From NCBI GenBank assembly GCA_965203485.1, contig OZ241892.1, forward strand, positions 1,344,001 to 1,408,000: a stretch of DNA of 64,000 bases, in the 5' to 3' direction. Of the stretch, positions 17,597 to 23,700 are shown piece by piece. This DNA is from Longimicrobiales bacterium. GTDB taxonomy: Bacteria; Gemmatimonadota; Gemmatimonadetes; Longimicrobiales; Gaopeijiaceae. The notes under the pieces were generated by a model that saw only the letters and a program-made list of their open reading frames with translations, was not told where the DNA came from and ran no database searches. Position 1 is the stretch's first letter. Each line of letters opens with the position of its first letter. A program made the position numbers and the translations under genes.

Positions 17597-18679
17597 TCAG
17601 CCCATCGGCACGGTCGGCAGGATCTTTCCCTCGATCCGCTCGAAGATCTCGTCCAGGGTTTCGCCCGTGATCGTCAGGCCGTGGTTCTTGAGCCCCACCA
17701 CGCACCGAACGGGATCGTCGGCCTCCCGCACGATGTCCGCCACCGCCTGCCCCAGCTCGCGGGTGCCGCACGGGAAGTTGAACTCGGTGCTGGGGACGCC
17801 GTCCATCCAGCCGTGGACGTGCACGATGGCGCCGACGCGGGGGTGCTCGCGGTAGATCATCCAGTGCTCGATGGCGTCGACCGAGACGCGGCGAGGCTCC
17901 ACGCCGGGCGGATGGGCCACGCGCATTCCGTTGCGGTCGGCATCGTAGTCCTTCACCATCAGGAAGTCGCGCCCGACCGTTCGCAGGTTCGACTTGTCGA
18001 CGCCGCTGGCGCTCATCCAGAACCACTCGTCGTCGTAGCGGGCCGACAAGTTGCCGTACGACAGGCCGCCGATTCCGAAGAGGCGCTTCATGTGCCGAAA
18101 GTCCCTCTCGGGCAGCAGCTCGTCCATGGGGAACGGGGCCGGGAGCAGGTCGAGCAGGTCGAGCTTCTTGCCGGCCCGGCGCAAGGACGCGGTGAGTTCG
18201 TCGCCCTCCCAGAGGCGCTCGGGCAAGTCGGGCTCGAAGAAGTTCTCGATCACGAGCGTGGACGAGGCGAGCGGATGAATCCGCTCGTAGACGCGTCGGA
18301 AGTACGCGTCGTGCCCCGAGTTGTCCGCCACCGTGTAGTGCCCCTGCTCCGGCGTCAGGAAGTGGGCCTCGTGGCGTCCGTTGCTCGACGGCACCAAACC
18401 GACCACTAGGTTGGCGAGGGCGCGCACCAGCGTCGGATAGCCTTGGGGGACGGGATTGTTGAACGGGTCCGGGAATTCGGTAACGGCGCACACGAACACG
18501 GCTTGGGCGTGCCGCCGCACGGGCTTGGGCCGCCCTTCGGGAAAGAAGTTCACGACGAGCTTGGCATCGTCCGAGTCGGCCACGAACCGGTGGCCGTTCG
18601 ATTCCATAACGGTCCGGAGCCCCTGGGAGAACCAGGAAAACGGAGCCGCACCGGCGTCGCCGGCGAAAGTGAAGTCCAT
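17597..18679 (-). CDS. Class II aldolase/adducin family protein with N-terminal extension
   Basis: GNLSAR, SASGVDK, IEHWMIY, IVHVH, LKNHG. Confidence 0.85.
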   Translation of the reverse strand: MDFTFAGDAGAAPFSWFSQGLRTVMESNGHRFVADSDDAKLVVNFFPEGRPKPVRRHAQAVFVCAVTEFPDPFNNPVPQGYPTLVRALANLVVGLVPSSNGRHEAHFLTPEQGHYTVADNSGHDAYFRRVYERIHPLASSTLVIENFFEPDLPERLWEGDELTASLRRAGKKLDLLDLLPAPFPMDELLPERDFRHMKRLFGIGGLSYGNLSARYDDEWFWMSASGVDKSNLRTVGRDFLMVKDYDADRNGMRVAHPPGVEPRRVSVDAIEHWMIYREHPRVGAIVHVHGWMDGVPSTEFNFPCGTRELGQAVADIVREADDPVRCVVGLKNHGLTITGETLDEIFERIEGKILPTVPMG

Positions 18680-18821
18680 AACGTGTGGAACACCTCGGTG
18701 GTTTGGCGTCGGTCCAGTCAACATATAAGGTCGCATCTTCGGGCGAGAAGCAAGCCGGGCGGCCCGCCCGGACCGCTTCCAGCCTCCGCCTTGCCGGGCC
18801 GCGCACTCCGTGCTCCCTGCC

Positions 18822-18850
18822 TTACGTGCCGCCGCTGGGTTGGCTACATT
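18822..18850 (+). promoter_or_regulatory. Candidate sigma70 promoter of the rpsF operon
   Basis: TTACGT-N17-TACATT about 70 nt upstream of the ATG, followed by a hairpin-forming leader. Confidence 0.35.
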
Positions 18851-18920
18851 TCGGGCTCCCGCTCCGCTTGGACGGCGGAGCCCGTATGCCAGACTTGCGG
18901 ACCGAGGGACTCCGAATCCG

Positions 18921-19808
18921 ATGAGACCGTACGAGATCGTCTACGTTCTGGATGCCTCGCTGGACCGGGACGCCGCCGCCGAGAAGATCGACGGCTTCCA
19001 CGAAGTTCTGGGCGGCGAAGTCGAAGCCGTCGACCACTGGGGCGTACGCCGGCTGGCCTACCCGATCGCGAAGGCCCGCTTGGCGTACTACGCGGTCGCG
19101 CACGTGAAGGCGGAGCCGTCCGCGTTGCCCGAGTTCGAGCGCCGGCTGAGGCTCGACGAACAGGTCGTCCGCTACTTGCTGGTGCTCAACGAGGGCCAGC
19201 CGACGTCCGGGGACTCGATCTTCGCGCAGGCGGCGAAGGCGGCCGAGGAGGACGCCGGCGGAGACGAGGGAACGCCCGGCAAGAACGGCGGCGACCCGAG
19301 CGCCGCGCCTGCCGAGACCGACGAGAACGGCGGTGGCGAGAGCCCCTCGACGGCGGAAGGCGGCGCCGATTCGGGAGACGAGACGCCCGCGCCCGCGGAG
19401 GCGCCGGGCGAGCCGGATGCCGGAGCGGCGGAGAGCGGCGAAGGGTCGAGCGGCTCGGGCGGCGGAACTGGGCCCGCCGCCGAGACCGGCGAGACCGCCT
19501 CGGGGCCGGGCGACGGAGCCGAGGCCGCGCGAGGCGAAGAGGGCGAGAGCGAACGGACGGCTCCCGTCCACGGCCCCCCGGAGTTTTCGGGCGCGCGAGG
19601 CCGAGGCCGCCGCCACGACGCGCCCCGCATCCTGCTCCTCGACTACAAGGACGTGGCGACGCTGTCCCACTTCGTGAGCGAGCAGGGCAAGATCCTGCCG
19701 AAGCGCACCACCAAGGTGACTGCCCGCTTCCAGCGCCGGCTCGGCACGGCCGTGAAGCGCGCCCGCTACCTCGCCTTGCTGCCCTACGTCCGCGACCACG
19801 GGAGCTGA
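18921..19808 (+). CDS. rpsF-rpsR: Fused 30S ribosomal protein bS6-bS18 (295 aa)
   Basis: Residues 1-91 are S6 ([20 protein letters not shown]). The last 77 aa are S18 ([37 protein letters not shown]). One open frame; rplI follows. Confidence 0.93.
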
Positions 19809-19812
19809 TCCC

Positions 19813-20268
19813 ATGAAAGTCGTCTTGCGCAAGCGCGTGGCCAAGCTGGGCGACGCCGGCGACGTGCTCAGCGTCAAGCCCGGCTTCGCCCGCAACTACT
19901 TGGTCCCGCAGGGGCTGGCCTACGCCGCGTCGCCCGCCGCCGTCCGCGCCATCGAGGAGGAACGGCGGCGCAGCGCCGAGGAGGCGCGCAAGAACTACCT
20001 CGAGGCCAGGCGGCGCGCGGCCCGGCTGGAGGGCGTCGTCGTCACCGTCGCGGCCAAGGCCGGCGAGGCCGGGCGGCTCTTCGGGTCGGTGGGTCCCAGG
20101 GACGTGCTCGACGCGGTGCACGCGTCCGGCATCGACTTCCGCCTGGAGCTGCGGACGCTGCAGCTGGCCGATCCGATCAAGGCGGTGGGCGAGCACCGAG
20201 TCGGCGTTCGCCTGCACGCGGACGTGACGGCCGAGATCGGCGTCGTCGTGGAGGCCGAAGCGGATTGA
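19813..20268 (+). CDS. rplI: 50S ribosomal protein bL9
   Basis: MKVVL...LG..GD...VKPGFARNYLVPQG and GRLFGSV. Confidence 0.97.
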   Translation: MKVVLRKRVAKLGDAGDVLSVKPGFARNYLVPQGLAYAASPAAVRAIEEERRRSAEEARKNYLEARRRAARLEGVVVTVAAKAGEAGRLFGSVGPRDVLDAVHASGIDFRLELRTLQLADPIKAVGEHRVGVRLHADVTAEIGVVVEAEAD

Positions 20269-20292
20269 TTCCGGTGCGAAGGACATCCGCGC

Positions 20293-20658
20293 GTGCCTGA
20301 AGACCAGCAGCTCGCGATGATGCCGTCGGTGCGGCGGGCCGTCCGTTGCGCGATCGAGCGAAAGGCGCGGGACGTGACGGTCATGGACCTGCGCAAGCTG
20401 TCGTCCGTCACCGACTTCTTCGTGATCGCCACGGGCCGCTCCGACGTCCATGCGCGCACCATCGCCGAGCACGTCATCGACTCGTCCAAGCGCGACGGCA
20501 GGGGACCGGAGACGGTCGAGGGCCTGGACCAGGGACGCTGGGTCCTCGTGGACTACATCGACTACGTGGTCCACGTCTTTCAGCCGTCCGTGCGGGAGTA
20601 CTACCAGCTGGAACTTCTGTGGGGGGACGCGAAGACCGTCGTCGTGGAAGACGCTTGA
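20293..20658 (+). CDS. rsfS: Ribosome silencing factor
   Basis: TDFFVIATG, WVLVDY, VVHVF, REYYQLELLW. Confidence 0.95.
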   Translation: MPEDQQLAMMPSVRRAVRCAIERKARDVTVMDLRKLSSVTDFFVIATGRSDVHARTIAEHVIDSSKRDGRGPETVEGLDQGRWVLVDYIDYVVHVFQPSVREYYQLELLWGDAKTVVVEDA

Positions 20659-20722
20659 GCGCCGGGTCCGCTGGCAACCGGCCCGGGGCCTTGCGGGCCG
20701 TGCCGGTCCGGCGGGAGGTCTC

Positions 20723-23700
20723 GTGAAGCTCAAGTCCCTGAAGATGCAGGGCTTCAAGTCGTTCCCAGAATCGACGCGGGTGGAGTTCCACGAGGGCATC
20801 ACGGCCGTGGTGGGGCCGAACGGATGCGGCAAGTCGAACATCGCCGACGCGGTTCGCTGGGTTCTGGGCGAACAGCGTCCGACCGCGATCCGCGGGGCGC
20901 GCATGGAGGAGGCGATCTTCCAGGGGACGGTTTCGCGCAGGCCGGTGGGCAGGGCCTCCGTCTCGCTTCTGGTGTCCAACGAGGATGGCACGCTTCCCGT
21001 GCCCTTCGAGGAGGTCGAGCTCTCTCGCGCAGTCTACCGCGACGGCGGCAGCGAGTACCGGCTCAACCGGACGCCGTGCCGGTTGCGCGACGTGGTGGAC
21101 CTGTGCCGCGACACGGGCCTGGGAGCGAGCGGGTACTCGGTCATCGAAGCTCGAATGATCGACGCCATCTTGTCGGGCCGGGCCGAGGAGAGGCGAGCTC
21201 TCTTCGAGGAGGCCGCGGGCATAGGCAAGTACAAGGACCGCCGCCGAACGGCGCTGCGCCGCTTGGATGCGTCCGAGATCGACCTGCAGCGGGTCGAGAC
21301 CGTCGTCGAGGAGGTGCGCTCGAAGGTCCGTTCGCTCGCGCGGCAACGGGGCAAGGCGCAGCGATGGAAGGATCTTCGGGCCCGCCGGCTGGTGGTGGAG
21401 CTCGCGGTGGCGCGCCACCGGACTGCCGGTCTCGAGGAGCGCTTGGCGCGCATCGACGCCGAACTCCGGTCGGGACGGAGCGAGGGCGCGGCGGACGAAG
21501 CGCGGCTGGCGGCGGCGGAGGCCGACCTGGAGCGCGCGCGGCTCGGGCGGGTCGAAGCCGAGAAGACGCGCGCTGAGGCCGCCCAGGCGCTGGACCAGGC
21601 AGGCGCGCGGCTGGCGAGCATCGAGAAGGAGAGCGCGGTGGCGGCCGTTCAGATCGAAGCGGGACAGCGGCGCTTGGACCAGATCGCCGAGGAGGAGGCG
21701 AATCTGGAGGAGGTGCGGGGACGCTCGTCCACCGAGCTGGCGGGGCTACGGGAGGAACTCGCGGCGCAGAGGTCGTCGCTGGAGGCCGCCGCCGCGGAGT
21801 TGGCCGGGCGCCGCGCCGCGTCCGCCGAAGCGGCGAGTCGGCTGGAAGGCGCCCGCGGCGCCGCGGGCGAGCTCGAGGCGCGGCGAGGAGAGCTGGCCCG
21901 GCGTCTCGCGCAGTTGCGAGGCGACCGCGAAAGCGCCCGGACCCGGGCCGCCGAGCTCGAGCGGCGCCATGCGCAGCTGACGGAGGACTCGGAACGCGGC
22001 GCCGCGGCATTGCGGGACTTGCGGACCCAGGGCGACTTGTTCTCGGAGCGGAGCGCGGAGATGGCCCGCAAGGCCGCCGAGGCGGCCGAGGTTGCGGACG
22101 ACGCCCGCCGCGGCTCGGCAAAGGCGCGCGAACGCTTGGCGGAGGCGCGCGAACGCGAGATGGGGTTCGAGTCGCAGATCGCGGGCCTCGCGGCCGAAGC
22201 CGCCGGGTTGCGGAGGGCCGCGGAAGCAGGCGGCGACCTGGAAGCGATGGCGCGTGCCGCGCAGGCAGCCTTTCCGGACCGGGTGCGCGGGCTCCTGGCG
22301 GACTTCGTGAGCGCCCGGCCCGGCGACGAGAAGGTCGTGGACGACGCGCTGGGCGCGCTCGGCTTCGCGTTGCTGGTCGGCGCCCCCGAGGACGCCGACG
22401 CCGTTGCGGACTGGTACTTGGCCGAACCCGGACGCGAGGCGGGGCTGGCGTTGCTGCCCGTCGGCACGGCCCCGGCCCCCGCCGGCCCGCTTCCGCCGGG
22501 GGTCTCGGCGAGCGGGCAGGGCGCGGCCTGGGCGGAGGCGGTGCTCGGCGGCATCAGCGTTCGAGGCGCCGGGCCGCGGGCCGAGGCCGGGGCGGCGTCG
22601 GCCGGATCGCTCGATTTCGCCGGGTCGGGGTGGACGGACTCGTTCGGGGCAGTCCACTTGGTGCCCGAGCGCGGGGTTGCCGGGCCCGTCGAGAGAGCCG
22701 CCCACATGGATGCCCTGGAGTCGCAGCTCCAGCGGCTTCGCGTTGATCTAGAAACTGCTGTAAGTGAGCGTACACAAGCCGAGGAAGAACAATCACTTAG
22801 AGACGCGTCTTCCGACGCGGCCGCGGAGCGTCTTCTCAAGGCGCGCGACGACGCCCGCTCGGCTCAGGCCGAGGCCGCCGCCCGCTCCGACGAGCACGAG
22901 CGGCTGAGCCGCCACCAGGCCGAGACGGCCCAGCGCGTGGAGTCGACGAAGGCCGCTCGCGCCGAGGCGGCCGAGCGTGAGCGGGCGGCAGGCCGCGAGA
23001 TCGAGGCCTCTGCCGACGAGGAGAGCGCGCTGGCCTCGAAGACGGACGACTGTCGGACGAAGCTTCAGGACGCGGAGAGAGCGTGGGAGGCGGCGCGCGA
23101 GACGCAGTCGGAAGCCGCGGTTCGAGCTACCCGCGTCGAGAGCGCGTGCGAGCGCCTCGACGGGCGCGTGTCGGACGGCGTCGCCTCGGTGGACGGCGCG
23201 ACCGCCAGGATCGGCGAACTCCAAGCCGAGGCCGCCGCCTTGGAAGCGGAAGGCGCGCGGCTCAAGACGGCGGCGCAGGAGGCCGAGGCGCAGCTGGAGG
23301 GGCTCTTCGGCCGACGCGACGACGCCCGCGCGGCTCTGTCGGCCCGGGATCGTGTTCTCGACGAGGCCCGCGAGGCCGAGGGCGAACTGGAACGCCGCGT
23401 CCGCGAAGTTCGCGCCGCCGAGCGCAAGTCGGCCGAGCGCAGGCACGAGCTGGAACTGGACCGCCAAGACTTGGCCAACCAGCTCGGCCGCGTCGCCGAG
23501 CGCATCGAGGCCGAGTGGGGCCGCGCGCTGGACGCGCTCCTGGCCGAGACGAAGCCGGCCGACGGCGGCCTGGAGGAACTGGAGGCCGAGCTGGCCGACA
23601 TCGTGCACCGGCAGGGCCGCATGGGTCCCGTCAACATGCTCGCCGTCGAGGAGCACGCGGAGGAAAAGGAGCGGCTGGAATTCTTGGAGCGCCAGCGCCG

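Follow-up and report, generated by a model that had tools for sequence, protein, structure and literature searches.

The gene under study encodes the ribosomal proteins bS6 and bS18 in a single frame (a fused rpsF–rpsR gene) in a Longimicrobiales bacterium of the phylum Gemmatimonadota. It lies in a stretch of 64,000 nucleotides on contig OZ241892.1 (assembly GCA_965203485.1, positions 1,344,001 to 1,408,000 of the forward strand), hereafter the window, to which all coordinates below refer unless another locus is named. The gene is one open reading frame (ORF) in which both domains are recovered by Pfam above their cut-offs: Ribosomal_S6 (PF01250) at aa 4–88 (E 2.4e-22, 79.4 bits against a cut-off of 27) and Ribosomal_S18 (PF01084) at aa 240–287 (E 1.2e-20, 73.8 bits against a cut-off of 21). 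The features of the coding region are the following.

18921..19808, + strand: fused rpsF–rpsR ORF, 295 aa, with a TGA stop at 19806–19808
18921..19226, + strand: bS6 module, aa 1–102, consisting of the S6 fold (aa 1–90) and a conserved C-terminal motif
19227..19574, + strand: hypervariable acidic linker, aa 103–218, 116 aa, net charge −23
19575..19616, + strand: junction motif, aa 219–232, PPEF followed by the Arg-rich S18 N-terminal tail
19617..19805, + strand: bS18 core of the cysteine-free (C−) type, aa 233–295
19813..20268, + strand: rplI (bL9), which follows in the operon, with Pfam Ribosomal_L9_N and Ribosomal_L9_C

The fused protein has a calculated mass of 30.8 kDa and an isoelectric point (pI) of 4.9, composed of very different parts: the linker alone has a pI of ~4.05 and the S18 part a pI of 11.4. 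The whole genome (3.56 Mb, a single contig, estimated 95% complete) contains one PF01250 match and one PF01084 match, both in this ORF. No separate bS18 gene with its own start was found; there is neither a stop nor a start between the two domains, and no other S18 in the genome. The last in-frame ATG, GTG or TTG before the linker is a GTG at codon 88 (19182), and the next is the GTG at codon 245 (19653), already within the S18 core (DYKDV); the interval between the two has no more than ATC, at codons 100 and 237, and CTG, at codon 238.

An initial annotation of this DNA had read the locus as one frame of S6, linker and S18, with neither ssb nor priB between the domains, no in-frame ATG, GTG or TTG from S6 to the S18 core, and a linker rich in Gly, Ala, Glu, Pro and Ser. 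Each of these points holds. The 295-aa frame carries both Pfam domains, and the profile scan that the annotation proposed places both above cut-off; the frame is continuous, and therefore has no room for ssb or priB; no ATG, GTG or TTG lies in frame between codons 88 and 245; and residues 93–230 contain 32 G, 25 A, 20 E, 14 P and 13 S. The second rpsR that it suggested seeking is absent, the fused ORF being the only S6 and the only S18 of the genome. Around the gene, rsfS follows rplI, and a divergent class II aldolase gene lies upstream.

Distribution of the fusion and ancestry of the linker

Fusions were counted with hidden Markov models (HMMs) of S6 and S18 built from the family alignment and scored on the stop-to-stop ORFs of the loci. 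By this measure both domains share one ORF in all 31 same-family relatives (24 + 4 + 3). They do so too in 78 of 80 loci from a species-genome collection, which are the best 80 of at least 591 relative-encoding loci (at least 599 pattern matches) and overlap with the 31 relatives; of the remaining two, one is cut by a contig end and one (L102) has the domains in different frames. The species-genome loci all come from metagenome-assembled genomes (MAGs), titled Longimicrobiales bacterium or Gemmatimonadota bacterium. At the protein level, statistics were taken over the best 120 clusters at 90% identity, every one of which carries PF01250 and PF01084, at lengths of 219–345 aa. NCBI labels some of these clusters of fused proteins 'S18' and others 'S6'. 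Among the same-family genomes searched, no extra S6 or S18 match was found outside the fused ORF.

The other families of the phylum present a different arrangement. All 31 genomes checked there (f2, 2; f3, 5; f4, 7; f5, 4; f6, 1; f7, 5; f8, 1; f9, 1; f10, 2; f11, 1; f12, 2) have adjacent, unfused S6 and S18 genes in stop-to-stop ORFs, with no ssb between them. The fusion is lineage-fixed, with a stop-free two-domain frame in 31/31 family relatives as against 0/31 genomes of other families; the survey of related genomes that the initial annotation had called for finds it family-wide, with a linker that varies widely in length. In the sister family f3, the S6 and S18 genes lie in different frames in five of five checked genomes. 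In family f7 the two genes share a frame in five of five genomes and are unfused. Within f7, the genus g64 (loci L034, L035 and L036; genomes G118, G135 and G095) has the S6 stop directly before the in-frame ATG of an S18 of the C+ type, an arrangement that, by the codons at the boundary, is one substitution short of fusion. Two further f7 genomes, G111 (L033) and G122 (L037), also keep the genes in frame, with one or two codons separating stop from start; a stop-to-stop check of G111 gives an S6 of 149 aa, a stop, and then an S18 of 73 aa in the same frame, and thus an unfused pair. An open-frame length of 223 aa given for both matches in G111 spans this stop, so that equal lengths are no proof of one ORF; the wider tables of 41 and 121 genomes, among them the unpublished G025 and G094, which rest on such lengths, do not enter the counts.

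These unfused relatives also bear on the origin of the linker. In this phylum S6 already has an acidic C-terminal tail where it is unfused, of ~10 aa up to ~130 aa; only the f11 example has no tail. The longest tail, ~130 aa, is that of the unfused S6 of g64. Because unfused relatives already carry the tail, the linker is, on this comparison, the ancestral acidic S6 C-terminal tail and not a new insert. The initial annotation had described a 127-aa acidic disordered linker; its acidity and predicted disorder stand, and the segment is to be seen as an S6 tail expanded within the genus.

The variable part of the linker (aa 103–218) contains 27 D/E, 4 K/R and a single hydrophobic residue. Among the 117 of 120 clusters that have both flanking motifs, it spans 40–166 aa with a median of 61, so that the window's 116 aa is among the longest; its median D+E content is 33%, and its net charge runs from −6 to −44. 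Within the window's genus alone the gap between the domain models measures 114, 139 and 189 aa. The frame and the acidity of the linker are kept across these large changes in length. No substantial tandem repeat was found in the linker, a search of which gave no more than a pair of weak 9-nt arrays with 2.2–2.6 copies; the expansion is therefore not a simple repeat. An AlphaFold2 model assigns the linker no secondary structure, with a predicted local distance difference test score (pLDDT) mostly below 50, and the linker is predicted to be disordered.

The variable part is bounded on both sides by conserved sequence in the 120 clusters. The S6 module ends in NEG[QE]PTSG.S[IV]LA, and the S18 core is preceded by the junction [SG]PPEF[ST]G.RGRRRR[HMV]EGPP, of which P219, G224, G227, R228, R230 and R231 are invariant. 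PPEF is missing from the unfused S18 ORFs examined, 31 in all, which start with M..R[KR].C..CE or similar.

At 69% G+C, the openness of a frame is in itself weak evidence, since the other two forward frames over the linker are also stop-free. Very long spurious ORFs overlap real genes on both strands between 15609 and 21621, as is typical of a genome of this composition; examples are 18443–19816 (+, 457 aa) and 19186–20991 (−, 601 aa). Direct support comes from four Logan contig sets, each with one contig spanning 18700–19900 with no differing letter and no gap, at depths of 42–503; these sets belong to one study of at most two samples, possibly the source of the assembly, and are not fully independent of it. 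Across the linker they show no stop or indel. The weight of the case for a real fusion lies in the conservation across genomes and in the Logan contigs, with the comparative argument the stronger of the two.

Module structure, interface residues and the zinc motif

The AlphaFold2 run, made with an alignment of 120 sequences, gives the first 90 residues a pLDDT of 83–96 and the β-α-β-β-α-β order of the S6 fold, with strands at aa 2–11, 33–49, 52–64 and 82–89 and helices at aa 16–30 and 66–78. In a Foldseek comparison the S6 module matches solved S6 chains including 1g1x_A, the best match being 8cwo_F (TMt 0.88, root-mean-square deviation 1.4). For the other end of the protein, a sequence search matches S18 chains in the PDB to aa 228–294. 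No fused chain occurs among the 60 listed of the 131 PDB chains matched; each covers one half of the query.

The residues expected to join the two modules, and to bind RNA, are retained. Matched to E. coli numbering by the motif RRLAYPI, and not by an alignment with E. coli, R43, Y47 and P48 of the fused protein are presumably the equivalents of S6 R44, Y48 and P49; by the motifs DYKD and KRARYL, again matched without alignment, Y242 and K243 are taken to be those of S18 Y23 and K24, and K279, R280 and R282 those of S18 K60, R61 and R63. R43, Y47, Y242, K243, K279, R280 and R282 are invariant in the 120 clusters, where P48 reaches a conservation of at least 90%. In E. coli, S6 R44, Y48 and P49 and S18 Y23 and K24 form the S6:S18 interface, and S18 K60, R61 and R63 contact RNA (PMC4647458). 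This conservation argues that the two modules would still pair and bind RNA in the usual manner.

The zinc motif, by contrast with these residues, has been lost. A CX2CXnCX2H motif is described in the bS18 of diverse bacterial phyla, and in human bS18m the motif region binds a [2Fe-2S] cluster shared with bS6m (PMC11791143); zinc-binding and zinc-independent forms of S18 both exist (PMC5912738). The protein of the window contains no cysteine, 77 of 78 fused proteins contain none, and all four ligand positions of the motif are replaced in the fused proteins. Among unfused Gemmatimonadota S18 proteins, CxxC...CxxH is kept in 17 of 20 (f2, f4–f6 and f8–f12), the three exceptions all belonging to f4; the f3 and f7 S18 genes examined, also unfused, carry the motif as well. 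That S18 is here without its zinc-binding cysteines had been stated in the initial annotation, and the statement gains weight from the 17 of 20 unfused relatives that keep the motif. In this family, as far as the genomes compared can tell, fusion and zinc-motif loss coincide. The three f4 proteins without the motif (L123, L124 and L134; genomes G144, G061 and G132) have an N-terminus of the form M..KKGDP..E.., followed by SG[IV][ST]ARHQR, and four other f4 genomes keep the zinc motif.

The 5′ leader and the proposed position of the loop

Directly upstream of the fused gene lies a candidate regulatory leader, with the following features.

18857..18909, + strand: structured 5′ leader resembling rpsF_leader, with three helices, from a minimum-free-energy (MFE) fold and an alignment
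18857–18860 (UCCC) with 18906–18909 (GGGA), + strand: H1, the outer helix, containing the Shine–Dalgarno sequence GAGGGA (18904–18909)
18861–18867 (GCUCCGC) with 18875–18881 (GCGGAGC), + strand: H2, a hairpin
18882–18885 (CCGU) with 18897–18900 (GCGG), + strand: a small helix
18845..18850, + strand: weak −10-like box TACATT, upstream of the leader

The hairpin pattern recurs in the family, with both arms (strict form) in 76 of 129 leaders and the 5′ arm only (loose form) in 114 of 129 distinct loci. Covariation is seen across 40 leaders at the pairs 7–65 (CG 31, UA 6, UG 3), 14–31 and 41–56. The sequence 'CCCGU' follows the hairpin in nearly all leaders of the family, as seen without alignment to the published motif. 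Of the 114 leaders with the hairpin motif, 69 have a TAnnnT box upstream of it at a distance of at most 32 nt, which makes TACATT a lead, and only that, toward a promoter element. A sigma-70 consensus scan of 18700–20700 returned no promoter, and a terminator search of the same interval returned one minus-strand site, no more than in shuffled sequence. An Rfam scan of 18300–20400 at E≤10, against a database that may have no model for rpsF_leader, recovered no ribosomal leader, only chance-level matches to HIV-1_SD (E 6.2) and CcsR1 (E 7.6).

The published rpsF_leader is an autoregulatory RNA that responds to S6:S18 (Matelska 2013 and Fu 2014, as cited in PMC4647458), and its layout places the Shine–Dalgarno sequence in an outer helix, with a conserved inner hairpin and a conserved cytosine pair (PMC4647458), the pair being a mimic of C719/C720. 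The leader in the window is alike in lying directly 5′ of rpsF, in holding the Shine–Dalgarno sequence in its outer helix, and in having an inner hairpin with cytosines after it. It is unlike the published element in that its effector would be a single chain, and the likeness is one of layout, not of alignment. By analogy, we infer autoregulation, in which translation of the gene would be repressed by its own product acting on this leader.

The position of the acidic loop can likewise be approached by analogy. In Flavobacterium johnsoniae, bS6 and bS18 form a groove that takes up the 3′ end of 16S rRNA, whose last nucleotides meet a bS6 extension at the C-terminus (PMC7797042). A loop that leaves the S6 C-terminus would, on this model, emerge near the anti-Shine–Dalgarno sequence. 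The genome keeps that sequence, the 3′ end of its 16S rRNA carrying CCTCC, and bS21 is present. The bS21 match lies outside the window (G000:C1:420032-420196, − strand), in an open frame of 200 aa as against a domain of 55 positions, which may be either an extended bS21 or an effect of the high G+C on frame length. Shine–Dalgarno-like 4-mers occur upstream of 19% of 4544 ORFs of at least 200 aa, as against 14% at a control position, and 5-mers upstream of 5.4% as against 3.0%, with starts set at the first ATG, too rough a rule at 69% G+C. That the loop affects initiation in any way is speculation.

Readings of the fused gene and its relation to known systems

We give a probability of roughly 0.7 to the reading that the locus encodes a genuine single-chain bS6–bS18 ribosomal protein. 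Under this reading, adjacent rpsF and rpsR genes would have merged into one frame in the ancestor of one Longimicrobiales family, and a pre-existing acidic S6 tail would thereby have become an internal loop. The chain would be translated from the S6 start; its folded modules would dock via the usual S6:S18 interface and bind the S15–16S rRNA platform as the heterodimer does elsewhere; and the disordered, polyanionic loop would extend into the solvent next to the 16S 3′ end. The covalent link would make both the 1:1 stoichiometry and the formation of the dimer automatic, and such automatic pairing may have allowed the loss of the S18 zinc knuckle. By attaching to the leader, whose outer helix would hide the Shine–Dalgarno sequence, the chain probably also represses the mRNA that encodes it, and it would itself stay uncleaved.

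Several observations weigh against this reading, in whole or in part. The intact chain of ~31 kDa is a prediction from genes. In the AlphaFold2 model the S18 module has a pLDDT of only 59–76, the predicted template modelling score (pTM) is 0.48 and the two modules are not docked; at these values the inter-domain arrangement cannot be judged from the model. Locus L102 (395–1088, in a MAG titled Gemmatimonadota bacterium) is the only complete locus among the 80 with its domains out of frame, which may reflect a frameshift error in the MAG or a genuine interruption. In a start-codon survey of 25 fused ORFs (the window's own and those of 24 relatives), some in-frame ATG, GTG or TTG occurs within the linker in 20, and the residue after RRRR in 78 fused loci is H in 39, M in 31, L in 2, and I and F in 1 each, with 4 unscored; genomes with such linker starts may make a truncated S18 by internal initiation. 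The strongly conserved PPEF[ST]G stands exactly at the boundary between linker and S18, and could be a processing site. The zinc motif has also been lost in three of the seven unfused f4 genomes, so that its loss does not require fusion and has occurred more than once in the phylum. As for the leader, the 95% of cells that are paired in 40 aligned leaders (against 37–51% with the partners slid) is a score flattered by the use of one set of sequences both to draw the helices and to count them; the MFE fold gives the helices, yet with a z of −0.73 it is no better than shuffles, so that the support for the leader structure consists of conservation and covariation only.

If PPEF[ST]G, or some other site in or beside the linker, were cut, the fused gene would encode a polyprotein: one chain would be made and then cleaved, the mature ribosome would hold ordinary separate S6 and S18, and the fusion would serve co-expression and co-folding only. 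This we consider unlikely. It would account for a PPEF.G.RGRRRR that is invariant or nearly so in the 120 clusters while the sequence before it is hypervariable, for the confinement of that motif to fused proteins (it is missing from every unfused S18 ORF examined), and it is helped by a linker whose predicted disorder would make it accessible to proteases. No protease or cleavage signature was identified, however, and the junction motif might just as well serve in docking or contact rRNA. The acidity kept over large changes in length suggests, moreover, that the linker is of use in the mature protein, and the unfused relatives already keep an acidic tail on their mature S6.

A different functional interpretation, which we hold to be quite improbable, accepts the single chain and makes the fusion an adaptation in which a peptide tether replaces a metal. 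In mitoribosomes the knuckle region bridges to S6 via a metal cluster; a covalent link might render the zinc knuckle dispensable and platform assembly zinc-independent. The loop, anchored at its two ends beside the 16S 3′ tail, would also be a tunable electrostatic gate or mRNA mimic, modulating Shine–Dalgarno pairing or the binding of initiation or hibernation factors, and its rapid changes in length from genus to genus would reflect selection, not drift.

It is very improbable that translation of S18 begins internally, in the linker or at the S18 N-terminus, whether beside the fused chain or in place of it, and that the long frame is incidental read-through. The linker starts in 20 of 25 fused ORFs and the methionine after RRRR in 31 of 78 loci, to which may be added a V (GTG) at that place in several of the 25 ORFs, would provide such starts in some genomes. 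The window has none between codons 88 and 245, however, and an independent S18 start in its genome is accordingly unlikely on the codons present; 5 of the 25 fused ORFs have no ATG, GTG or TTG at all from the end of S6 to DYKD. The scattered linker starts recur at two places only, the Met of 'SGMS' in the S6 C-terminal motif and the residue after RRRR, and a product begun at the recurrent M/V site would be without the conserved Arg-rich tail. The upstream PPEFSG.RGRRRR is conserved at the protein level, and must therefore be translated in this frame; and S6 and S18 are in frame and stop-free in 31/31 family genomes, as against different frames in 5/5 f3 genomes. Finally, the suspicion that a sequencing or assembly error, or a stop lost in one MAG, has joined two ordinary genes, to which a metagenome-type assembly at 69% G+C with all frames open and the frame break of L102 might lend some colour, is effectively refuted by four separately built contig sets that are identical over 18700–19900 (though perhaps from the source sample) and by a fusion present in 31/31 family genomes, 78/80 loci and 120 protein clusters from several data sources, besides which a separate S18 would have no start codon.

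Canonical bS6 and bS18 are the separate products of rpsF and rpsR, as in the S15–S6–S18–rRNA structure 1G1X and in the 30S subunits of E. coli and T. thermophilus. The single-chain protein resembles them in both Pfam domains, in the S6 fold, in conserved equivalents of the interface and RNA-contacting residues, and in an operon that continues into rplI. It differs in being one polypeptide with no rpsR start codon and with the S6 tail internal. Its component parts are ordinary S6 and S18; what sets it apart is that they are covalently joined, that a polyanionic loop lies inside the chain and that the zinc motif is gone. In the classic cooperative model of 30S assembly, S6 and S18 heterodimerise before they bind the platform (PMC4647458).

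Other systems offer partial parallels. In the mitoribosome, bS18m is physically tied to bS6m via the region that corresponds to the bacterial CX2C...CX2H of S18 (PMC11791143); there the tie is a [2Fe-2S] cluster between two chains, whereas here it is a peptide and the four ligand positions are replaced. The alternative mycobacterial S18-2 is, like the fused S18, of the C− type without CxxC cysteines (PMC5912738), but the fused S18 is the sole copy of its genome and is joined to S6, and is not a second, Zur-regulated paralogue. Added segments, often acidic, that continue bS6 beyond its fold, on the platform and close to the 16S 3′ end, are known as well: a C-terminal helix in the Bacteroidia (PMC7797042) and the polyglutamylation of RpsF by RimK (PMC11957791). 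In the fused form this segment is far longer than these bS6 extensions and its disorder is predicted; S18 closes it into a loop, so that no free S6 C-terminus is left for a RimK-type addition.

A description of an S6–S18 fusion was not found in the literature covered, which does not extend to subscription journals and supplements; in Yutin et al. 2012 (PMC3353972) the words 'fusion', 'fused' and 'S18' do not occur in the main text. Such proteins already number in the hundreds in public databases, and one ESM Atlas cluster of them bears the automatic name 'Multifunctional fusion protein'. The initial annotation had made novelty conditional on the fusion not being documented lineage-wide: the fusion is indeed lineage-wide and its sequences are deposited, and no literature description of it was found.

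A sole-copy, family-fixed single chain would imply that the S6/S18 pair tolerates permanent tethering, and the fused gene may serve as a ready-made construct for studies of assembly and autoregulation, with one effector instead of two. Together with known systems it offers a natural comparison of three anchorings of S18, by zinc knuckle, by a mitoribosomal metal cluster shared with S6, and by a peptide link. The acidic loop, if it indeed lies near the mRNA exit and the anti-Shine–Dalgarno sequence, could interest students of initiation in a poorly studied phylum. There is also a practical consequence, in that annotation of the fused protein as either 'S6' or 'S18' can make one of two universal marker proteins seem missing from a genome.

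Other two-domain S6–S18 proteins exist beyond this family. A profile search of 1.84 billion representatives in a 50%-identity library gave many hits in two stretches, and 39 of 42 scanned carry both Pfam domains, at 149–238 aa. Their linkers are short or lacking, and many are single sequences on single contigs with close relatives that are unfused; some of them may be artefacts. What marks out the Longimicrobiales form among them is that its acidic loop is long, that it has lost the zinc motif and that the fusion is fixed throughout a family. One of the short proteins, P0167, has 149 aa and no linker, and its S6 half is 94–99% identical to abundant unfused S6 clusters of 114 aa, two of which NCBI names Prevotella sp.; among its relatives are ~65 further two-domain clusters of 140–253 aa, nearly all of them single sequences, some on contigs of 113–428 kb. 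Another protein from the search, P0181 (189 aa), carries two Ribosomal_S6 stretches (158.9 bits) and no S18 by Pfam, and may be either a tandem S6–S6 protein or a miscalled ORF.

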